64,000 bases of DNA, taken from an uncultured bacterium. Lineage in GTDB: Bacteria > Verrucomicrobiota > Kiritimatiellia > CAIVKH01. Positions 8,319 through 61,307 of this stretch are shown in pieces. The stretch's first letter is position 1. Each line of letters starts with the position of its first letter. The stretch spans positions 32,468 through 96,467 of the forward strand of contig CALGMT010000026.1 in NCBI GenBank assembly GCA_937958885.1, written 5' to 3'. The notes below the pieces were generated by a model. The model ran no database searches. It saw nothing but the letters and a program-made list of their open reading frames with translations, and was not told where the DNA came from. The translations under genes were made by a program, and so were the position numbers.

Positions 8319-8374
8319 TTCCATGCTCTGTAAAAACTTTTTTTCGCGCTTCCATACTCTGTAAATTACAGCGC
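8319..8374 (+). repeat. Two tandem copies (31-bp period) of the dispersed motif TTCCATGCTCTGTAAAAA
   Basis: Copy 1 at 8319-8336 (exact); copy 2 at 8350-8365 (TTCCATACTCTGTAAA). Lies immediately upstream of the ATG at 8375. Confidence 0.8.
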
Positions 8375-13036: not shown

Positions 13037-13777
13037 TTACGTACCGGCGCGTGTGAAGGCGGCGATGCAGGGGGTGCCGAAGCGGCGGGTCAGACCGAGC
13101 CGGTCGGGGATCCACTCGAGGGCTTCGGATAGCGCGACGCGCTTGAGGGCGCGGTGCAGTACCATGGGGCAGATAAATTGTCCCGTCCGCCCGGCGGGCG
13201 CGAAGCCGGCCGCCGCGAATGCGCCCGCGACCTCTGCGTGTGTGAAATTGCGCCACGTGCGGGTGTTTTTTTCCAGCTTGCGCTTGGCGGAGAAGAGCCA
13301 CGGCGCTAGCGCGTTGAGCCCGCTTTTCACCGGATAATCCACAACGACCACCGTTCGCGCGACGCGGGCGCATTCTCGAATCAACTGCGGCCAGCGCGTG
13401 CAGTGCGGCAGCAGGCGCACCGTGACCACCGCATCGAACGATCGGTCGGGGAAGGGCAGGGCGACCACGCTGCCGACGATGAACCGGCAGCGGCCGGCGG
13501 CAACGAGGTCGGCGATACGCTCGGCGCAGACCGATTCGCTGCCCAGGACGGTGACCTCATAGCCCGCCGCCGCGAGCGGACGCGCGAGCTGTCCGTGGCC
13601 GCCGCCGACGTCCAGCACCGTTCGCGCGCCCGCGGCGCGCAAGCGCTCGAGCACGAGGCGTTCCTGACGCGCGAGCATCCACGCGCCGATGGGGCCTGCG
13701 AAGCGCGCGGCATAGGAGGCGGATGCGGTCTCAACATCGGCCAGTTCCGGCCCGTGTGATTCGCGGTCGTCATTCAT
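13037..13777 (-). CDS. Class I SAM-dependent methyltransferase
   Basis: ORF 13037..13900; the true start is probably the ATG at 13777 (MNDDRE...), because the upstream part of the ORF reads through the dispersed 23-bp repeats. VLDVGGGHG SAM-binding motif. Confidence 0.75.
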   Translation of the reverse strand: MNDDRESHGPELADVETASASYAARFAGPIGAWMLARQERLVLERLRAAGARTVLDVGGGHGQLARPLAAAGYEVTVLGSESVCAERIADLVAAGRCRFIVGSVVALPFPDRSFDAVVTVRLLPHCTRWPQLIRECARVARTVVVVDYPVKSGLNALAPWLFSAKRKLEKNTRTWRNFTHAEVAGAFAAAGFAPAGRTGQFICPMVLHRALKRVALSEALEWIPDRLGLTRRFGTPCIAAFTRAGT

Positions 13778-13798
13778 CCCCGCGCACGATGTCAAAAG

Positions 13799-13847
13799 TT
13801 CCATGCTCTGTAAAAACTTTGTTGGAAAGTTCCATGCTCTGTAAAAA
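13799..13847 (+). repeat. Two tandem exact copies (31-bp period) of TTCCATGCTCTGTAAAAA
   Basis: Copies at 13799-13816 and 13830-13847. Located in the divergent intergenic region between the methyltransferase and the GDPD gene. Confidence 0.85.
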
Positions 13848-13930
13848 ATTGTTCGCGGCCGGCCCTGATGTAGCGACGAGCGGGATCGGAGGGGACCCAT
13901 GCGCAGACCGCGTCGTTGATTGACGAAGAC

Positions 13931-14260
13931 AGCCTTGTAATTCCGCCGCTCTGCCGGCGGAAGTGCAGGGCCGATGACCTCCGGCGACCGCGCGCCGGAG
14001 CTACAGCAGTGCCGCAGCGTCGGCTGAAATTGCTAAAAAAGTGTCAGACCGCGTCATTTATAGACCTGCGACGGCTCTGTTCGTATGTCTCTCCGTATCT
14101 GTTCATGCTCTCATCTCATCTCGCATCAAGTCCAAGTGCACATACGTAGGGACTAACGCCACTGCCCCGACCCAGTTGGCATCCCGACGTTAACATTCAT
14201 CGTTTGACCCCTTTTGGTCTACGACGTTAACATTCATCGTTTGACCCCTTTTGGTCTACA
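13931..14260 (+). repeat. Copy A of a ~330-bp conserved non-coding element (candidate structured RNA / cis-regulatory leader); its 37-bp tail is tandemly duplicated
   Basis: About 85% identical over ~320 bp to the reverse complement of 28113-28440. The tail ACGACGTTAACATTCATCGTTTGACCCCTTTTGGTCT occurs twice (about 14186-14222 and 14223-14259). Oriented toward the GDPD start at 14309. Coordinates are approximate (+/-10 bp). Confidence 0.7.
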
Positions 14261-14308
14261 AGGGGGGGGTGGACGGGCGGGCTCGAGTTGAGTAGGCTAC
14301 TCCATTCA

Positions 14309-19478: not shown

Positions 19479-19558
19479 AACGCGTCGCGCTCGTTGACAG
19501 GGCGCGCGCTTGAACGGTAGGGTATGTCCTGTTTTCCGAATCCTCCGCCGGGTGTTTC

Positions 19559-21268
19559 GTGACTGCCAACGACGAATACATCATTGAAATTCTCGAAAGC
19601 GTCGGGCTGATCACCCATCAGCAAGGCGCGGAAGCGCTGCAGAAGGCGCAGCAAGCGGACAGGGCGGTCGTCGATGTACTCGCCGATCTCCACTATGCGG
19701 CGAAGACGGACGTCCTCAAGGCGCTCGCCAATCAGTTTGGGATGGAATTCATTAGTCTCTCCGGGGTCGAGATCGACCAGGAGGTTGTCGACCTGGTGCC
19801 GGGCGAGGTGGCGCGCCGCTATCGCATCGTCCCGGTGTACCGCATGGAGAACACGATCACGGTGGCGCTGAGCGATCCGCTCGACGTGGAGACGCTGGAC
19901 AGTCTGCGCTACGTATTGCGCTGCGACGTCGGCGGCGTAGTCGCGATTCCGGAGGAGATCGAGGCGGCGATCGCGCGGTATTATCCCGCGACCGGCACCA
20001 CGGTGGCGTCGATGTACGACGAACTGACCGAAGGTTCCGTGCAGACGCCCGGCGAAAAGCCGCCCAAACTCGAGGGCGAGGACGAAGTCACCGACGCGGA
20101 TGCGCCGATCATCAAGCTGGTAAGCTTGATCATCCTGGAGGCGTTCCGAAGCCGGGCCTCGGACATCCACCTTGAACCGTTGGAGCGCAAGTTCCGCGTG
20201 CGCTACCGCATCGACGGCGTGCTGCACGAGGTGGAAAGCCCGCCGAAGCGCCTGCAATCGGCGATTATCAGCCGCGTAAAGATCATGGCGAACATGAGCA
20301 TCGCGGAGAAGCGCCTGCCGCAGGACGGACGCATTCAGATCAATGTGATGGGCCGCGATCTCGATTTGCGCGTATCGTCGGTCCCGTCGAATCACGGCGA
20401 GTCGATCGTCATGCGTATTCTCGACAAGGACAGCCTCTCGCTGGGTCTGCCGAAACTCGGATTCTTCTCTGACGACCAACAGACATTCGAGCGGCTGATC
20501 GGATTGTCTGACGGGATCATCCTCGTCACCGGCCCGACAGGTTCGGGCAAGACGACCACGCTATACGCCTGCCTGAACCACATCAACAAGCCGGACCGCA
20601 AGATCATCACGGTTGAAGATCCGGTCGAATATCAAATTACCGGCATCAACCAGGTGCATGTGCGGTCGGATATCGGGCTGACCTTTGCGGCGGCGCTCCG
20701 ATCGATCCTTCGCCAGGCGCCGAACATCATCATGATCGGCGAAATTCGCGATTTGGAAACGGCGGAAATCGCCGTGAACGCGTCGCTGACCGGCCACCTG
20801 GTGTTTTCCACACTGCACACGAACGACGCGCCGAGCGCGGTCACGCGGTTGATCGATATCGGCGTGAAGCCTTTCCTCGTCGCGTCGTCCACGCGCGCGA
20901 TCATGGCGCAGCGGCTCGTGCGCAAAATTTGCGAGCGGTGCAAGGAACCGGTGCAGCCGACCGACGCCGAGCTGCGCATCCTGGGCGGGTTGGCGGGGTC
21001 GGTGGCGTCCGCGCAGCTCTATCGGGGGCGCGGGTGCGCGGACTGCAACCACACGGGGTATCGCGGCCGCCTCGGCATCTTCGAAATTTTCCTGATCACC
21101 GACGAGGTCCGGCACATGATCTACGAGCGGGTTTCCGCGTCGCAGCTGCGCGCCCGCGCGCGCGAACTCGGCATGCGGACGCTGCGCGAGGACGGCGTCC
21201 GAAAAATCATCGCGGGCCAGACCACGCTGGAAGAAGTCGTGCGCACGACGATGGGGGATGCGAACTGA
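19559..21268 (+). CDS. pilB: Type IV pilus assembly / T2SS ATPase (PilB/GspE family) with N-terminal T2SSE_N domain
   Basis: Walker [11 protein letters not shown]; Asp and His boxes; tetracysteine C..C....C..C zinc motif; N-terminal GspE-N domain. Confidence 0.85.
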
Positions 21269-21270
21269 CC

Positions 21271-22359
21271 ATGACCATGTCCGCCGCCCAGATTCAAATG
21301 AACGATCTTCTCGATCTGGTGATCGAGGAGGGCGCATCGGATCTGCACATCGGCATCGGGCTTCCGCCGGTGCTGCGCCTGCACGGGCGCCTGCAGCCGA
21401 TCGATACGGAGCCGTTGAAGCCGGAGGACACCGAACGCCTGATGGCGTCGTTCACGCCGGAGGAGCATATCAAACGACTGCGCGACAACGGCGGCACGGA
21501 CTTCGGGTTCGGCCACGGGAACAAAGGGCGGTTCCGCGTCAGCGTGTTTCGCCAGAAGGGCGCGGTCGGCATGGTGCTGCGCCTGATTCCATCGCGGCTT
21601 CTTTCGCTGGAGGAGATCGGATTGCCGCCCGGCCTGCGGGATTTATTGTTCAAGCCGCGCGGGTTGATCCTGGTGACCGGCCCGACGGGTTCGGGCAAGA
21701 CGACCACGCTCGCGAGCATGCTGAACGTGATTAATGAGACACGGGATGTGCACATCATCACCGTCGAGGACCCGATCGAGTACTACCACCCGCACAAGAA
21801 AAGCGTCATCACGCAGCGCGAGGTCGGCGTGGACGTGCCGAGCTTCAGCGAGGCGCTCAAGCGCGGATTGCGCCAGGACCCGGACGTGATCCTCGTCGGC
21901 GAGATGCGCGATCTCGAGACGATTCAGGCCGCGATCACCGCCGCGGAGACCGGCCACCTCGTTTTTGCGACCCTCCACACCACCGGCGCGGCGCGCACGG
22001 TGGACCGCATCGTGGATGCGTTTCCGATGGAGCAGCAGAACCAGGTGCGCACCCAGCTCGCGGCCAGCCTCGAGGCGGTCATCTCACAGTTGCTGCTCAT
22101 TCGCCATGATCGCCCCGGCCGCGTGGCCGCCTTCGAGATCATGGTGGCGACGCCCGCGATCCGCGCGCTGATCCGCGACAACAAGACCTTCCGGATCACC
22201 TCGGACATTCAGACCGGCGCGAAATACGGTATGATGACCCTCGACGACCATCTCGTGAGCCTCTTCGAGCAGGGGATCATCAACTACGAGGAGGTCGTCA
22301 CGAGCGCGCAGGATATCGAGTCGGTAATGCAGAAAATCCAACCCAAGGGACGCCGCTAG
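21271..22359 (+). CDS. pilT: Twitching-motility / pilus retraction ATPase PilT
   Basis: ATG at 21271; PilT-type sequence without the N-terminal domain; [10 protein letters not shown] Walker A; HLVFATLHT. Confidence 0.9.
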
Positions 22360-22367
22360 GAGACGCC

Positions 22368-24077
22368 ATGTCGGACGCGGAATTCAAAGATCCGTTTCTC
22401 CAGCAGTTGGTTGACGACGGGCTCATTAATCGTCAGCAGGCCGAGGAGGTCGCCGACGAGCACGAGCGCACCGGCAAGCCGGTGCGCGAAGTCCTCATCG
22501 ATATGGAGATCATCGATGAGATGACTTTGTTGCAGGCGATTGCGAGTCACCTGGGTACGCGCGTCATCGATCTTAGCCGCACGGAAATCAGTCCGTTTGT
22601 GCTCAAGTCGATTCCCGCGAGCGTCGCGCGGATGTACAACGTGGTGCCGATCGAGGCGGACGCGCATTCGGCCACACTGGCCACGTATGATTTGTTGACG
22701 CCGGACGTGGTGGACGAGCTCAATTTCGTGCTTACGCGCGATGTCTCGTTCGTCGTGGCCCGCGAGTCGGATATCCGCACGTATCTCAACCAACACTATG
22801 GCGACGCCAGCGAATCGGTGAACGACATGCTGTCGGCGCTGGAGAGCGAACTGGAGCACGTCGGCGAGACGGTGGGGCATGCCGGCGGCGATCAGACAGC
22901 CGAAATCGAGGAAATGGCGAATCAGGCGCCGGTCATCCGGTTCGTGAATCTCGTGCTGTTCCAAGCGGTCAAGGACCGCGCGTCCGACATTCATTTCGAG
23001 CCGTTCGAGACCGAATTCAAGATTCGCTATCGCGTGGACGGCGCGCTTTATGAGATGGCGCCGCCGCCGAAGCATCTCGCACTTCCAGTGATTTCGCGCA
23101 TCAAGGTCATTTCAGGGTTGAACATTGCAGAACGCCGCCTGCCGCAGGATGGGCGCATCCAGTTGCCGGTGGGAGGGCGGCAAATTGATTTCCGCGTCTC
23201 CACGCTGCCCACGCAGTTCGGCGAGAGCGTCGTGCTCCGCGTGCTCGATCGCAGCTCGGTTCAGCTCGACCTGCAGAACCTCGGGATGCCGGACGACGTA
23301 TTCAACGCCTTCTGCGCGGACATCGACAAGCCGAACGGTATCGTCGTCGTCACCGGTCCGACGGGTTCCGGCAAGACCACCACGCTGTATTCCGCGCTGC
23401 GACGCCTGAACACGATCGATTCGAAATTGCTCACCGCGGAAGAGCCGGTCGAATACGACATCGAAGGCATCATTCAGATTCCGGTTCACGATGCCATTGG
23501 ACTGACCTTCGCGCGCGTGCTGCGCGCCTTCCTGCGCCAAGATCCCGACATCATCATGGTCGGCGAAATTCGCGATAAGGAAACCGCGGAAATCGCCATC
23601 CAGGCCTCCCTCACCGGCCACTTGGTGTTTTCGACACTGCACACCAACGATGCGCCCGGCGCGGTGACCCGCTTGATCGACATGGGCGTCGAACCGTTCC
23701 TCATCTCGTCCACAATGGAAGGCGTGCTGGCGCAGCGGCTTGTCCGCACCATCTGTCAGGATTGCAAGGAACCGTATACGCCGGATAATGAGGTGCTGGA
23801 ACTCCTCGGGTTGCGCCGGGATCAGGTGCAGGACCGCCCCTTTTTCCACGGAACCGGCTGTGTGAAGTGCAACGAAACGGGATACCGCGGGCGTCGCGGC
23901 GTCTATGAGTATTTGCGGGTCACCGATCCGATTCGCGACCTGATCAACGAGCGGAAGCCGACCATCGTCATTCGCGACAAGGCGATGGAACTCGGCATGC
24001 GGACCCTGCGGCAGGACGGGATTCGCTGCATCTTGGACGGCTATACCACTGTCGAGGAAGTGTTGAAGTACACATAA
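22368..24077 (+). CDS. Second PilB/GspE-family assembly ATPase paralog
   Basis: Same domain architecture as 19559..21268 (T2SSE_N, Walker A, tetracysteine motif) but only moderate identity to it. Confidence 0.85.
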   Translation: MSDAEFKDPFLQQLVDDGLINRQQAEEVADEHERTGKPVREVLIDMEIIDEMTLLQAIASHLGTRVIDLSRTEISPFVLKSIPASVARMYNVVPIEADAHSATLATYDLLTPDVVDELNFVLTRDVSFVVARESDIRTYLNQHYGDASESVNDMLSALESELEHVGETVGHAGGDQTAEIEEMANQAPVIRFVNLVLFQAVKDRASDIHFEPFETEFKIRYRVDGALYEMAPPPKHLALPVISRIKVISGLNIAERRLPQDGRIQLPVGGRQIDFRVSTLPTQFGESVVLRVLDRSSVQLDLQNLGMPDDVFNAFCADIDKPNGIVVVTGPTGSGKTTTLYSALRRLNTIDSKLLTAEEPVEYDIEGIIQIPVHDAIGLTFARVLRAFLRQDPDIIMVGEIRDKETAEIAIQASLTGHLVFSTLHTNDAPGAVTRLIDMGVEPFLISSTMEGVLAQRLVRTICQDCKEPYTPDNEVLELLGLRRDQVQDRPFFHGTGCVKCNETGYRGRRGVYEYLRVTDPIRDLINERKPTIVIRDKAMELGMRTLRQDGIRCILDGYTTVEEVLKYT

Positions 24078-24163
24078 GACGCTCATGCGGGTAAAACGAT
24101 TAAGCGTTTGCCATCTCTTGAGCGAGCGGCTAGCATTGGGCCAACTGTTTCGGATTATATAGC

Positions 24164-25474
24164 ATGCCGAAATTCAACTTTATAGCGCTTGATTCGCGCG
24201 GCCGCGAGAGCCAGGGCGAGGTCGAAGCGGACAACCAGACCATGGCGCTGGCCCGCATACGCGAGCGCGGCCTGTTCCCCACCAGCGTGACCGAGGCCGG
24301 AGCCAAGGCTCGCAAACCGGCGCCCGGCAAGCGCGCCACTGCAAAAGGCGGCGGCTCCGCGCTGAACATGAACATTGAGATCAAGATGCCCTCGTTCATG
24401 ATGAGCGTGAAGCCGAAGGAACTCATGGTGTTCACACGCCAGCTCGCGACGCTGGTGGACGCCGGGCTTCCGCTGGTCCGCAGCCTCGAAGTGCTCGGCA
24501 AGCAGGAGCGGAATCCATTGCTGCGCAAGGCGCTTCGCGAAATGGCCGAGGCCATTCAGTCCGGCAGCACCTTTGCCGAGGCCCTCGCGCAACACCCGAA
24601 AGTGTTCAACAAGCTCTATGTGAACATGGCCAAGGCAGGCGAAGTCGGCGGCGTGCTCGACAAGGTGCTGATCCGCCTCGCGGAGTTCATGGAGAAGGGC
24701 CAGAAGATCAAGAACAAGGTCACCAGCGCGATGGTCTATCCGATCGTCGTCATGGTGATGGCCGTAGGTATTCTGGCGTTCCTCATGGTGTTCATCATCC
24801 CGAAGTTCAAAGAGATCTTCTCCGAACTGCTGGAGGGCCAGGCGCTGCCGGGCCTTACGGAGTTTGTGATGGGCATCAGCTCCACGGTTGCGGGCATGGT
24901 GGACCTCGGCTTCATCCGTGTGCCCGGTATAATTCTGGTTATCACCGGCGTCTTTTTCCTCGTGTCGATCCTCAAGCTCGCGGCGAAAACGCAGACGGGC
25001 GCGTACATGCTCGACAATTTCAAACTGAACATGCCCGTGTTCGGGACGCTCGTGAAGAAAACGGCCGTAGGCCGGTTCACGCGAACGCTCGGCACGCTGA
25101 TGTCGTCCGGCGTGCCCGTGTTGCAGGCGCTCAATATCGTGCGCGACACGGCGGGCAATGAGGTGCTGGCCCGCGCGGTATCGAGCGTGCATGACGCGGT
25201 GAAAGAGGGCGAAAACATGGCCCCGCCGATCGAGGCGACGAAGGTCTTTCCTCCGATGGTCATCAGCATGGTACAGGTCGGCGAAGAAACCGGCGAGTTG
25301 CCCGAGATGTTGATGAAGATCGCCGACAACTACGACGATGAGGTGGACAACGCCGTCGCCGGCCTCACCTCCGTGATCGAGCCGCTGCTGATTGTCTTTC
25401 TCGCGCTCGTGGTCGGCACCATTGTGATCGCGCTGTTCCTTCCGCTGATCTCGATCATCGGCAAACTGAGCTGA
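24164..25474 (+). CDS. pilC: Type IV pilus / T2SS inner-membrane platform protein (PilC/GspF family)
   Basis: Two T2SSF repeats; about 3 TM segments. Confidence 0.85.
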   Translation: MPKFNFIALDSRGRESQGEVEADNQTMALARIRERGLFPTSVTEAGAKARKPAPGKRATAKGGGSALNMNIEIKMPSFMMSVKPKELMVFTRQLATLVDAGLPLVRSLEVLGKQERNPLLRKALREMAEAIQSGSTFAEALAQHPKVFNKLYVNMAKAGEVGGVLDKVLIRLAEFMEKGQKIKNKVTSAMVYPIVVMVMAVGILAFLMVFIIPKFKEIFSELLEGQALPGLTEFVMGISSTVAGMVDLGFIRVPGIILVITGVFFLVSILKLAAKTQTGAYMLDNFKLNMPVFGTLVKKTAVGRFTRTLGTLMSSGVPVLQALNIVRDTAGNEVLARAVSSVHDAVKEGENMAPPIEATKVFPPMVISMVQVGEETGELPEMLMKIADNYDDEVDNAVAGLTSVIEPLLIVFLALVVGTIVIALFLPLISIIGKLS

Positions 25475-25483
25475 TCCGCCGCC

Positions 25484-26083
25484 GTGCAACCGGACGGCCA
25501 GCGTGCGAACGATACCCCCGCCGCTTCGCCCGCGCGCGCGCGCTGGACCCGCGCCGAGTGGGTGATTGTCGCCGCATTGCTGCTGGCCGCGCTCTCGACG
25601 GTTTGGCCCGCGATCGCCGTGTTCCGTAGCCGACAACGCATTGCGATGGCGCGCCACGATGTGTTCGCCCTGCAGCGCGCGATCATGCGCTATCACCGGG
25701 AATACGGCGCATGGCCGGCGGACGCCGGCGGTCGCAACGTGGACTTGCGATTCGGCGGGCGACGCCCGAACGCGGAGGTTCTGCGCGTCCTTCGCGCGGA
25801 GGCCGGACCGGGAAACACGGACCATGAAATGAACGCGCAGCGGATGATCTTCATCGAGGTGGAGCCTTATGTGCGCGGCTACTCCGGGCTGGATGCGACC
25901 GGCGAATTTCTCGACCCTTGGGGCACGCCCTACCAGATCGTGCTCGACACCAGTTACGACAACGCCGCGCAGGTGGACAACAGCGTGTATGGCCGCGTGC
26001 CCGGCGTCGGCGTCCTCGTCTGGTCCCTCGGGCCCGACCGGAAATCCGAAACGCGCGACGACATCCTGTCGTGGAAGCGGTGA
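25484..26083 (+). CDS. GspG-like pseudopilin domain protein with a non-canonical N-terminus
   Basis: C-terminal DPWGTPYQ and SLGPD motifs matching T2SS GspG (DPWGNPY / SLGADG). N-terminal hydrophobic helix with E at +5, but no G at -1 and no FTLIE consensus. Confidence 0.5.
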   Translation: MQPDGQRANDTPAASPARARWTRAEWVIVAALLLAALSTVWPAIAVFRSRQRIAMARHDVFALQRAIMRYHREYGAWPADAGGRNVDLRFGGRRPNAEVLRVLRAEAGPGNTDHEMNAQRMIFIEVEPYVRGYSGLDATGEFLDPWGTPYQIVLDTSYDNAAQVDNSVYGRVPGVGVLVWSLGPDRKSETRDDILSWKR

Positions 26084-26101: not shown

Positions 26102-27049
26102 CTATCCGTCGATCGACGTCACACGCACCCGCGATAGCAGCGCTTCCACATCGGCGCGATCGAAGAGCGCGGGGATTTCCGACATCGCATTCGCGGAACC
26201 GCATGCGATCCCCCATACGGCGGACGCGATGGCCGAACGCCCGGTCGTCAACCCATGTAGAAGGCCCGCCGTCACCGAATCGCCGCTGCCGATCGGGTTG
26301 AGCGCCTTCACGGTAGGCGGCTGGATGCGCCATGACGATTCGCCCGCGAGCAGGCAGCATTCATCCGCGCCCGCAGTGACCAGCACATTCTGCGCGCCTC
26401 GTGCGCGAAGCGCGCGCATGGCCGCCATGCAAGAGGTCGGATCGCGCGCGGGCAAGCCGGTGGTGATCTCCAATTCCTCGCTGTTGAGCTTCACCCAGTC
26501 GGGCTTCGTGTCCAGGGCCGCGCGAAGCGGCGCGCCTTGCGAATCGATCAGCAGCGCGAGTCCGGCCTTGCGCGCGCCGCGGGCGATCTCCATCAGACGC
26601 TCGGCCGGCGCGCCCGGCGGCAAGGCGCCGCTGATTGCGAGCCAGGAGCACTCCGGCGCTTGTTCCGCGAAAAGCCGATCGAACGTCGCCCACTCGCCGA
26701 GCGTGGGCGGTGCGGCCTCCTCCACCCACTCGGTTACGCGCGTACCGTCGCCCTCGACCGCGGTGTGGCAATGCCGCGTTTCCGCCTCCGTCTCGATCCA
26801 GTGGGCATCCACACCGAGATCGTTCAGGGCGCGCGCGATGAATGCGCCAGACGGGCCGCCCCGAAATCCGATAAGGCGCGGGCGCGCGCCGAGCCGCGCG
26901 AGGGCGGCGGCGACGTTGACCCCCTTGCCGGCGGCAGATATTCGGGTTCGTCGCGCGCGGTTCACCTCGCCTGGGCGCATGGCCTCCATAAACAGAGTGC
27001 GCTGAACCGCCGGGGTCAGCGCGAGACAGAGAATCGGGCCGACGCTCAT
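26102..27049 (-). CDS. PfkB-family carbohydrate kinase (1-phosphofructokinase/tagatose-6-phosphate kinase-like)
   Basis: N-terminal LTPAVQRT...PGEVNRA and C-terminal GSGDS motifs of the PfkB family. Confidence 0.75.
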   Translation of the reverse strand: MSVGPILCLALTPAVQRTLFMEAMRPGEVNRARRTRISAAGKGVNVAAALARLGARPRLIGFRGGPSGAFIARALNDLGVDAHWIETEAETRHCHTAVEGDGTRVTEWVEEAAPPTLGEWATFDRLFAEQAPECSWLAISGALPPGAPAERLMEIARGARKAGLALLIDSQGAPLRAALDTKPDWVKLNSEELEITTGLPARDPTSCMAAMRALRARGAQNVLVTAGADECCLLAGESSWRIQPPTVKALNPIGSGDSVTAGLLHGLTTGRSAIASAVWGIACGSANAMSEIPALFDRADVEALLSRVRVTSIDG

Positions 27050-28023
27050 TGCGCGCGCGGGGTCGCACGGATCATCGGTTCCATAGCGTGTAAAAGTTGG
27101 ACCTCGCGAAAGTCCTCGATCACCTCGTCAAAAAGTCGCCACGCCTCCGTGTGAACGGCGCGCGCGCCGGGTTTGAGCGCGGTCAACGGGGCGAGTGTTT
27201 CCAGTTCCAGAATCTCGCTGTTCGTGAAGACCTCGGCATTGCACCCCATGTCCGGATAAACGGCCTGCGGGTCATGCGTATGCCGCTTGATGAACGTGCC
27301 GAAGGGCAGGGCGTAGGCCATCCACGCGGGCGAGGAGCGAAACCCAATCTTCTGCGGCAGCTCGGCGCGCGGGTCTTGGCGCAGTTGGATAAAATTCTCC
27401 CCCCACGTCCAGCGGGGATCGTTCATCTTGGTGTACTTCCAAAGGACCAATGGGCGGGCGGGCAGCAGATGGCGCGTGTGCGATCCGTAGGGTTCCTGGG
27501 GCAGCACAGCGATGCCGCCGGGCGCCATCACCGAGAGCGCCCACGGCGCGACGGACTGCGTCGTGCGGCCTCGATTGATGAGCGTGTGGGTCAAGTGGAC
27601 CGCGCCGCCGACGAGACGGATATCGAGCTGCTTCTGAAGTCCGCTTGGCTTATCGGGCTTTTGAATCAGGCGAAGCGTATTCCCGTCCCATTCCCATGGC
27701 ACGGGATCGTTGTCCGGGACGTATGTCAGCGGTTTAGACTCCGGCGCAATCCAGAACCGGTGACCGCCGAAAATGCGCCATTTCGACCCGCGCGTCTGAC
27801 CGAGCTGATTTTCGAACTCGCGGAAAACATTTTTGCCGTCCACGCGGCCGAATCGGATCACCCGCGGTCCGACATCCGCGGTGACGATCAACTCCGTTCG
27901 GCCGTCTGAGAGACGAAGACAATTCGGCCAGCCGGCATATTCGATGAGGGAAAGATTTGTTTTCATAAAGCGTATTGGGACGGCGCCACGTTCATTCATC
28001 GGAATCTGCATCTCAATCGGCAT
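27046..28023 (-). CDS. Hypothetical protein (325 aa)
   Basis: ORF with good codon structure; 4-bp overlap with the PfkB kinase; no motif recognised. Confidence 0.4.
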   Translation of the reverse strand: MPIEMQIPMNERGAVPIRFMKTNLSLIEYAGWPNCLRLSDGRTELIVTADVGPRVIRFGRVDGKNVFREFENQLGQTRGSKWRIFGGHRFWIAPESKPLTYVPDNDPVPWEWDGNTLRLIQKPDKPSGLQKQLDIRLVGGAVHLTHTLINRGRTTQSVAPWALSVMAPGGIAVLPQEPYGSHTRHLLPARPLVLWKYTKMNDPRWTWGENFIQLRQDPRAELPQKIGFRSSPAWMAYALPFGTFIKRHTHDPQAVYPDMGCNAEVFTNSEILELETLAPLTALKPGARAVHTEAWRLFDEVIEDFREVQLLHAMEPMIRATPRAQ

Positions 28024-28112: not shown

Positions 28113-28440
28113 GCCCCCAAAAGGGGTCAAACGATGAATGTTAACGTCGGGAAAATCGGGATGCCAACGGGGTCCGGGCAGAGCGTCAGTCCGTGTGTAT
28201 GGGCATTTGGACTTGATGCAAGAGGAGATGAGAGCATGAACAGATGCTGAGAGGCATGCGAACAGCGCCGTCGCAGGTCTATGCATGACGCGGTCTGGCG
28301 TTTTCTGTGCGATTTCAGCGGACGAAGCGGCGCTGCTGCAGCTCCGGCGCTCTGCCGCCGGAGATCAACGGCCCTGCACTTCCGCCGGCAGAGCGGCGAA
28401 ACTGCAGCGTGGAATCGCACTCGATATTCGCCGACAAGGC
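28113..28440 (-). repeat. Copy B (inverted) of the ~330-bp conserved non-coding element
   Basis: Reverse complement aligns to 13931-14260. The tail motif CGACGTTAACATTCATCGTTTGACCCCTTTTGG is present once, adjacent to the start of the minus-strand gene 27046..28023. Confidence 0.7.
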
Positions 28441-30900: not shown

Positions 30901-31057
30901 TGAATTCGGGAAACGGAAGACGGAAAACAGAAGAATTTCCAGGTCTTTTGTGCTGCAGGCGCGGGCGCAAGAACCCGCCGAGATCGGATCAACGCATGCC
31001 CTGCGTGCGGCTATCGGGCCGTAAATCGAAACCCTAACCCCGGCCCTATTCCGCGCG

Positions 31058-31170
31058 GCGGGAGGGGGAGGGGGAGGGAGAGGGAGAGGGAGAGGGAGCG
31101 GGAGCGGGAGAGGGAGAGCGAGAGGGAGAGGGAGAGGGAGAGCGAGAGGGAGGAAGAGCGAGGGAGAGGG
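31058..31170. repeat. Homopurine hexanucleotide microsatellite (GGGAGA/GGGAGC/GCGAGA), about 19 units
   Basis: Read directly: ~113 bp of G/A with occasional C, hexamer period. Lies between the convergent zwf and rubredoxin genes. Confidence 0.9.
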
Positions 31171-31173
31171 CAT

Positions 31174-31253
31174 TTCCATGCTCTGTAAAAACTTTTTTAA
31201 GAACTTCCATGCTCTGTAAAAAATTAATTTGCGGCTTCCATGCTCTGTAAAAA
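31174..31253 (+). repeat. Three tandem exact copies (31-bp period) of TTCCATGCTCTGTAAAAA
   Basis: Copies start at 31174, 31205 and 31236; directly follows the hexanucleotide tract. Confidence 0.9.
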
Positions 31254-50349: not shown

Positions 50350-50422
50350 CGGGCCCCTCCCAGGAGGGGACCTGAATACGACTCCCCTCCTCCGGAGGGG
50401 TGCCCGAAGGGCGGGGTGGGTA
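50350..50422 (+). repeat. G-rich double-hairpin element (CCCCTCC..GGAGGGG x2 + GTGCCCGAAGGGCGGGGTGGGT), copy 1
   Basis: Near-identical to 61240-61307; contains four G-runs (G-quadruplex-prone). Confidence 0.7.
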
Positions 50423-61057: not shown

Positions 61058-61110
61058 GCCAACAGCCGCGCCGCGTCAAACTTTTGGATGCGAGCCGAAG
61101 AGAAGTGTAA

Positions 61111-61307
61111 TCCCCTACTTTGGAGGGATGTCCGAAGTGCGGTAGAGTCTTGGGTGACGGGAAACGGAACACGGAGTTGTTCAAATCCATCAGTTTGAAA
61201 TCGGAACGAATGCTTAAAAACCAACTCCCCCGCTTCGCGGACCCCTCCGGTGGAGGGGACCAAGAGAGTCCCCTCCTTTGGAGGGGTGCCCGAAGGGCGG
61301 GGTGGGT
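61111..61307 (+). repeat. G-rich double-hairpin element, degenerate copy (61111-61143) plus full copy 2 (61240-61307)
   Basis: Same TCCCCTCCTYYGGAGGGGTGCCCGAAGGGCGGGGTGGGT core as at 50350-50422. Confidence 0.7.

Follow-up and report, generated by a model that had tools for sequence, protein, structure and literature searches.

A repeat in the upstream regions of two unrelated operons

The best-supported account of the sequence preceding the GDPD gene is that it belongs to a new family of interspersed intergenic repeat, found in the gene-proximal upstream region of two unrelated operons. We read the repeat as non-coding and lineage-specific, and most likely as a non-autonomous mobile element or the scar of one; we put the probability of this reading at about 0.5. 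The mobile part of the reading is limited by the number of visible copies, which is only two, and by their position within 14 kb of each other. The window (the whole stretch of DNA analysed, 64 kb long) contains the two copies, A and B, as follows.

13932-14267, plus strand: copy A, whole inserted segment; the core homologous to copy B is 13936-14254
14185-14221, plus strand: tail unit 1 of copy A (37 nt), with a 36-nt tail 100% identical to copy B 28117-28152
14222-14258, plus strand: tail unit 2, an exact tandem duplicate present in copy A only
28117-28408, minus strand: copy B, with a single tail; it points at the 325-aa DUF4380-like gene, with the PfkB gene behind
27046-28023, minus strand: the 325-aa DUF4380-like gene (longest ORF); the true start is probably near 27966 (MKTNLSLIE)

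The copies lie in inverted orientation and share 84% identity. A repeat search of the window returned arms of 224 nt at 84% (13936-14159 and 28183-28406), and a MAFFT alignment of the copies over 13931-14258 has 248 of 297 positions identical (83.5%). Scanning the 64 kb with nhmmer and a two-copy profile recovered each copy with an E value of about 1e-135 and revealed no third one. The element measures ~290 nt, or 336 nt in copy A when the duplicated tail is included. The outer boundaries of copy A are precise to about +/-5 nt; in copy B, homology stops near 28408-28412. An earlier note on this DNA had reported a ~330-bp element recurring in inverted orientation at ~85% identity. The recurrence stands, at 84%, but the end given there for the second copy (28440) lies ~30 nt too far.

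The 36 nt of the 3' tail (14182-14217 in copy A, 28117-28152 in copy B) are 100% identical between the copies. In copy A only, a 37-nt unit, CGACGTTAACATTCATCGTTTGACCCCTTTTGGTCTA, is duplicated in tandem (14185-14221 and 14222-14258), the two units being 100% identical, and a G8 run at 14262-14269 lies 39 nt before the GDPD ATG (14309). Both the duplicated 37-bp tail and the G8 run, placed about 40 bp before the ATG, had been described in the earlier note and are found as described. Independent Logan contigs from the same genome begin within the tail, L001 at 14225 and L002 at 28145; they confirm the gene-side junctions only, not the bodies of the element nor the tandem duplication. Since the tail is present three times in the window, which suffices to break a k=31 assembly graph, these breaks are no sign of further copies.

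Both copies are intergenic, lie between divergent genes and direct the conserved 3' tail toward the adjacent gene. Copy A is located between a methyltransferase gene (minus strand) and a plus-strand operon in which GDPD is followed by DUF2400, LptD-like, inositol monophosphatase, DUF420 and type IV pilus genes. Copy B is located between the DUF4380-like and PfkB kinase genes (minus strand) and the DUF547 and glucose-6-phosphate dehydrogenase genes (plus strand). Homologues of the 325-aa protein are ~305 aa long, which places its start near 27966. For the methyltransferase ORF (13037-13900, minus strand) the start of the longest ORF is probably too far upstream, and a start near 13777 is likelier; the methyltransferases of relatives are 245-286 aa long and start about 20 nt from the motif array described below. 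Once the DUF4380-like start is re-placed near 27966, the distance from tail to start codon is about 150 nt for copy B, as against about 50 nt for copy A.

The host genome is Kiritimatiellae-like, within the PVC superphylum. The best named relative of the GDPD protein comes from a Kiritimatiellae MAG (61% identity), and the window encodes a DUF1559/N-methyl protein, of a kind typical of the PVC group.

Putative mobile promoters (PMPs) have been defined as upstream regions of one genome that share >50 nt at >=80% identity and precede non-homologous genes (Matus-Garcia, Nijveen and van Passel 2012, PMC3488235). The genes downstream of the two copies, GDPD and the DUF4380-like protein, are non-homologous (BLASTP E = 1.1, different Pfam families), and so are the upstream ones, the methyltransferase and the DUF547 protein (BLASTP E = 0.21). 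Because identity is at least 80% over more than 50 nt and neither pair of genes is homologous, the definition fits, and the element can be called, in an operational sense, a "putative mobile promoter" (PMC3488235), with promoter activity itself putative. Among the possibilities raised in the earlier note, the mobile promoter module is the one that fits best, given an insertion upstream of two non-homologous genes and the agreement with the PMP definition.

The whole window was compared with Rfam 15 at gathering score and gave no match. When both copies were searched at E <= 10, Rfam returned generic hairpin matches only (microRNA precursors, for example) and no match of the omega-RNA type; the Rfam search for a known RNA family that the earlier note had proposed was thus run and no family matched. 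ARAGORN detected no tRNA or tmRNA. A 20-mer from the tail had 0 matches in GTDB representative genomes and 4 in JGI metagenomes, the latter being chance matches of 20-23 nt on unrelated low-GC contigs. A 19-mer from hairpin H1 (described below) had 43 matches in GTDB genomes, none of which reached past the seed when checked with nhmmer. The tail, the H1 block and a central block had no match in IMG/VR viral contigs, and plasmid and phage collections searched with blastn in distant mode yielded none. The family is known from 64 kb of genome and the scans of collections rely on exact seeds; as far as these searches reach, it is confined to this lineage, relatives with 88% GDPD identity being without the element at site A.

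The element is absent from orthologous sites in relatives

Contigs from relatives were chosen by their GDPD orthologue, at 88, 84, 76, 72 and 69% identity (L008, 88%; L009, 84%; L010, 76%; L060 and L061, 72%; L058 and L059, 69%). The divergent methyltransferase-GDPD pair is kept in these 7 contigs, with a gap of 104-224 bp between the genes, and a search with the two-copy nhmmer profile did not detect the element at site A in any of them (7/7), nor anywhere else in the loci examined from relatives. A further contig, L007, has the same upstream sequence as L008 and begins inside the spacer. At site B the element is absent from L011 and L012, which carry the orthologous 305-aa/PfkB operon (68-70% identity); there, the region upstream of the operon spans 134 bp and 102 bp, respectively.

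Two native landmarks frame copy A.

13799-13847, plus strand: native left flank, outside the element; two copies of TTCCATGCTCTGTAAAAA, 31 bp apart, an array conserved in relatives
14268-14279, plus strand: native right flank, outside the element; GGTGGACGGGCG, where similarity to L008 and L010 resumes

On the right, the landmark GGTGGACG(G/C)GCG begins at the same distance upstream of the ATG, exactly 41 nt, in the window, L008 and L010. On the left, the landmark held in common with relatives is the array of TTCCATGCTCTGTAAAAA motifs, whose end lies 461 nt from the GDPD ATG in the window versus 121-123 nt in L008 and L010. The window sequences flanking the element measure 83 nt (13849-13931) and 41 nt (14268-14308), adding up to 124 nt. 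As this sum is close to the 121-123 nt spacer of the relatives, the arrangement is that expected of a clean ~336-bp insertion occupying 13932-14267. Since no significant alignment links the left flank of copy A to the spacers of relatives, the left edge of the insertion was placed by comparing lengths. Likewise, the flanks of A and B show no significant similarity to each other or to these spacers. Judged by the comparison of orthologous sites, the element is an insertion relative to the relatives, not a conserved leader. With copy A standing between GDPD and the conserved upstream motif array, the GDPD operon would be transcribed either through the element or from it.

The 18-nt motif TTCCATGCTCTGTAAAAA, which copy A separates from GDPD, is arranged in head-to-tail arrays of 2-3 copies with an exact 31-bp spacing, all on the plus strand and all intergenic. 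Arrays are found at 8319-8367, 13799-13847 and 31174-31253 in the window, at 975-1052 in L008 and at 6089-6229 in L010. Allowing up to 3 mismatches, the window has 8 matches, 6 of them exact, where 0 are expected. The methyltransferase-GDPD array comprises 3 copies in L008 and 5 in L010, in the latter as the near-palindrome TTTCCATGCTATGGAAA; degenerate forms of the motif (...GTCTGTAAAAA) occur in L058 and L060. The array looks like an operator, upstream activating or promoter array of the clade. Between the glucose-6-phosphate dehydrogenase gene and the third array of the window lies a purine-rich tandem repeat (31050-31172) with a 12-nt period and about 10 units of the GAGGGAGAGGGA type.

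Ends of the element and the question of mobility

Terminal inverted repeats common to both copies were not found: copy B has none of >=6 bp at its ends, and only in copy A are the inferred ends of the insertion marked by a perfect pair, CCTTGTA/TACAAGG, of 7 bp. As to target-site duplications, direct matches of 5 nt occur at chance level and none sits at the boundaries of either copy. The left junctions differ (...GACAGCC/TTGTAA in A versus ...TTCCACG/CTGCAG in B, the slash marking the junction) and have no tetra- or pentanucleotide target in common. Pfam searches of ~38 predicted genes revealed no transposase, integrase or TnpB, and none was identified in the rest of the 64 kb. In being short, non-coding, absent at orthologous sites and multi-copy (two copies seen), the element resembles a MITE; the inverted ends and target duplications by which the earlier note would have recognized one were looked for without success, and a strict MITE is rejected on these two tests.

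A segment of the native left flank of copy A (13904-13924, CAGACCGCGTCGTTGATTGAC) matches an internal block of the element (14045-14065, CAGACCGCGTCATTTATAGAC) at 18 of 21 positions, an exact 11-mer included. The left flank of copy B has a weaker resemblance, CAGACC...ATTTA, about 50 nt upstream. The match between flank and interior could reflect chance, a shared protein-binding site, or microhomology used in insertion.

Conservation between the copies is concentrated at the ends. The two longest identical runs, namely the 36-nt tail and a 30-nt tract in hairpin H1, are both terminal (joint permutation P = 0.002). This distribution is expected for the cis-acting ends of a mobile element; gene conversion could also yield it. 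Under the mobile-element reading, the repeat would have been copied into two or more intergenic regions, each flanked by divergent genes, and the two portions conserved best (the hairpin at the 5' terminus and the 3' tail) would serve as cis-acting ends.

A serious rival, although we consider it clearly less likely than a mobile element, is a one-off recombinational or segmental duplication of intergenic DNA, immobile and functionless, with the identical tracts explained as patches of gene conversion. In its favour, the repeat is seen just twice, at a distance of 14 kb, and neither inverted ends nor a target duplication nor a transposase accompanies it; the 18/21 match between flank and interior could be microhomology. 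Families of two members are, moreover, the majority among PMPs and have been attributed to recombination (PMC3488235). However, neither site looks like a source, since relatives have only a short spacer without the element at each; no fragments of flanking genes came along with the insertion, which is clean; and the clustering of conservation at the extremities fits cis-acting ends better.

Hairpins, composition and coding potential

The transcript that would be read from the forward strand of the element has three recognizable parts.

13932-13971, plus strand: hairpin H1, at the extreme 5' end; 17 pairs and 1 mismatch in A, 14 pairs and 1 mismatch in B
13979-14000, plus strand: hairpin H2, CTCCGGCG-ACCGCG-CGCCGGAG; the 8-bp stem is invariant and the loop is GCAGAG in B
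14049-14256, plus strand: C-rich, G-poor, pyrimidine-rich body and tail; C/G ratio 1.6-2.0 in A, up to 2.3 in B

H1 includes the 30-nt tract identical in both copies. Its 5' arm contains three T/C differences, all of them opposite G, so that pairing is preserved on the forward strand of the element only. In H2 the changes are confined to the loop, which bears out the hairpin CUCCGGCG-N6-CGCCGGAG of the earlier note. Both hairpins are kept in a two-sequence comparison, where 2 double changes occur among 75 predicted pairs. Outside them, the picture is different: in single-copy folds, substituted pairs are broken in 17 of 23 and 14 of 24 cases (14-18 of 19-25 on either strand). The tail forms only a weak 6-pair stem, GUUAAC/GUUUGAC. 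Conserved structure is limited to the two 5' hairpins H1 and H2, as seen in two sequences only. The C-rich tract extends over ~180 nt in both copies, and its C/G ratio falls around the 95th-99th percentile when compared with 78-nt windows from the whole 64 kb. In a forward transcript, the structured 5' part would precede a stretch of C-rich, G-poor RNA about 180 nt long. This composition resembles that of a Rho loading site, and read-through from upstream may be attenuated as a result.

The protein-coding capacity of the element was assessed from the pattern of substitutions. The 49 differences fall 14/19/16 by frame position, with no bias toward the third; this count leads to the same outcome as the rougher 5/14/9 from which the earlier note had concluded that the sequence is non-coding. 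One frame is open in both copies, with amino-acid identity (67%) lower than nucleotide identity (84%), and its translation has no homologue among 5.8 billion predicted proteins. Fragments of >=52 aa from the six frames (8 of the 12 of >=35 aa) gave no significant Pfam match, and thus no hint that a gene of a known family has decayed here. Neither copy is protein-coding, and a protein-coding origin is rejected on the absence of third-position bias, the 67% versus 84% identity and the absence of a protein homologue.

Some of these features would suit a structured cis-regulatory RNA, that is, a riboswitch-like 5' leader sensing a signal and co-regulating the GDPD and DUF4380-like/PfkB operons. 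Both copies are sense-oriented upstream of a gene; in the two conserved 5' hairpins the changes either fall in a loop or give G-U pairs; the succession of structured domain and C-rich tract recalls an aptamer with a Rho-dependent expression platform; and folding z-scores are about -2.6 to -2.7. We nevertheless regard this explanation as improbable. The element is missing upstream of the orthologues in L008-L010, L058-L061, L011 and L012, Rfam offers no family even at E <= 10, most substituted pairs are broken in the single-copy folds, and the distance from tail to start codon differs between the copies (about 50 nt in A, about 150 nt in B). A riboswitch-type leader is therefore rejected, being neither conserved with the gene nor matched in Rfam nor, as far as two sequences can show, supported by covariation, and with it falls the riboswitch or conserved-leader option of the earlier note.

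Even less probable is a small family of independently transcribed sRNA genes lodged in the two intergenic regions. The element would qualify as a non-coding, intergenic, two-copy family with conserved hairpins. Against this, its 5' end shows no conserved promoter-like match and neither strand an intrinsic terminator; conservation is highest in the 3' tail, which abuts the gene; and the element was not found in relatives.

A candidate promoter at the tail

Each of the two intergenic regions contains a sole sigma-70-like match, and in each case it falls at the tail.

14204-14233, plus strand: sigma-70-like match in copy A, TTGACC-18 nt-TAACAT, formed at the junction of the two tail units
28138-28167, minus strand: sigma-70-like match in copy B, TTGGCA-18 nt-TAACAT, its 18-nt spacing resulting from a 9-nt insertion

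The 9-nt insertion, TCCCGATTT (28153-28161), is present in copy B and missing from copy A. The two matches occupy an equivalent place in A and B and arise from different indels, in the absence of which TTGGCA would lie only 9 nt from TAACAT. That two different small duplications should produce the same spacing is suggestive. By placing a -35-like hexamer 18 nt before TAACAT, the tail duplications (37 bp in A, 9 bp in B) may create an outward promoter. We infer rather than assert such an outward-facing tail promoter, since matches of this quality (9 of 12 consensus positions) occur at chance frequency, 6 having been found in 20 kb versus 5.3 expected.

A more elaborate version of these ideas would make the element a mobile regulatory RNA cassette, a portable 5' leader whose structured 5' domain, C-rich Rho-loading tract and promoter-forming tail would bring unrelated operons under common control; or else a non-autonomous derivative of an RNA-guided recombinase whose internal sequence matches the target flank, as the 18/21 match between 13904-13924 and 14045-14065 hints. 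We give either form little credence. Finally, that the copies mediate inversion of the 14-kb GDPD-type IV pilus-PfkB segment, or bound it, is hardly credible even though they are inverted and bracket 13.9 kb: gene order at both junctions is as in relatives (methyltransferase-GDPD-DUF2400-LptD-IMPase-DUF420 in L007 and L010, 305aa-PfkB / 200aa-PilC-PilB in L011 and L012), copies that are 84% identical and share no uninterrupted identity beyond 36 bases make a poor recombination substrate, and there is no recombinase nearby. The match of gene order with relatives on either side leads to rejection of a composite transposon as well as of an invertible segment.

Comparison with known systems

The element resembles MITE-type repeats, such as Neisseria Correia/CREE, enterobacterial ERIC/IRU and pneumococcal BOX, in being small, non-coding, intergenic and polymorphic by insertion; these repeats can carry partial promoters at their ends. 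BOX elements contain a sub-unit in variable tandem copy number, and the 37-nt tail of the present element varies in tandem copy number in the same way. Unlike MITE-type repeats, it has no terminal inverted repeats or target duplication common to both copies, is seen in two copies and has no partner insertion sequence within the 64 kb.

With PATEs derived from IS200/IS605 and with REP/REPIN sequences, the element has in common the lack of inverted ends and target duplications and the presence of a strong hairpin at one end. It differs from them in lacking a convincing 3' hairpin and a conserved target tetranucleotide at the left end, in that the copies are opposite in orientation within 14 kb, and in that the window is without TnpA, TnpB or RAYT genes. 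Riboswitches and Rho-attenuated 5' leaders share with the element the sense orientation and the succession of a structured 5' part and a C-rich, G-poor tract; in contrast to them, it does not accompany the gene across relatives, finds no support from covariation in its two sequences, and matches no Rfam family.

As in PMPs, homologous upstream sequence precedes non-homologous genes, and here the upstream neighbours are non-homologous as well. Two-member families are typical of PMPs, for which non-autonomous mobile elements and recombinational duplication have been proposed as origins (PMC3488235). The element, at ~290-336 nt, is unlike them in size, PMP pairs having a mean of 66 nt (PMC3488235). 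Applied to it, the PMP label is operational and silent on mechanism, and promoter activity stays putative.

Other features of the window

A second dispersed repeat was noticed in the window. It is a GC-rich sequence of 42 nt, GACTCCCCTCCTCCGGAGGGGTGCCCGAAGGGCGGGGTGGGT, REP-like and with internal palindromes, present in 3 copies (50380-50421, 61108-61149 and 61266-61307) at 67-93% identity.

The type IV pilus / type II secretion cluster at 19559-26083 includes three T2SSE ATPase paralogues, two of them PilB-like with MshEN domains and one PilT-like, followed by PilC. In L007 and L010, the genes after DUF420 are different ones, encoding a 300-310-aa protein and CorA. This difference in the neighbours of DUF420 indicates a rearrangement breakpoint near 19480-19560, unrelated to the element. 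Extending the same genome by means of the genes at the window edges gained about 0.9 kb, on the left side only.

Significance

The practical value of these results is mainly negative: the element does not belong in catalogues of candidate riboswitches. Such repeats are, moreover, the very places at which short-read assemblies break. Should the mobile-element reading be true, a little-studied uncultured lineage would offer a clear case of a non-coding module that has come to separate a gene from its ancestral upstream control region. This would show how operons become rewired and, possibly, how promoters are rebuilt by small tandem duplications.
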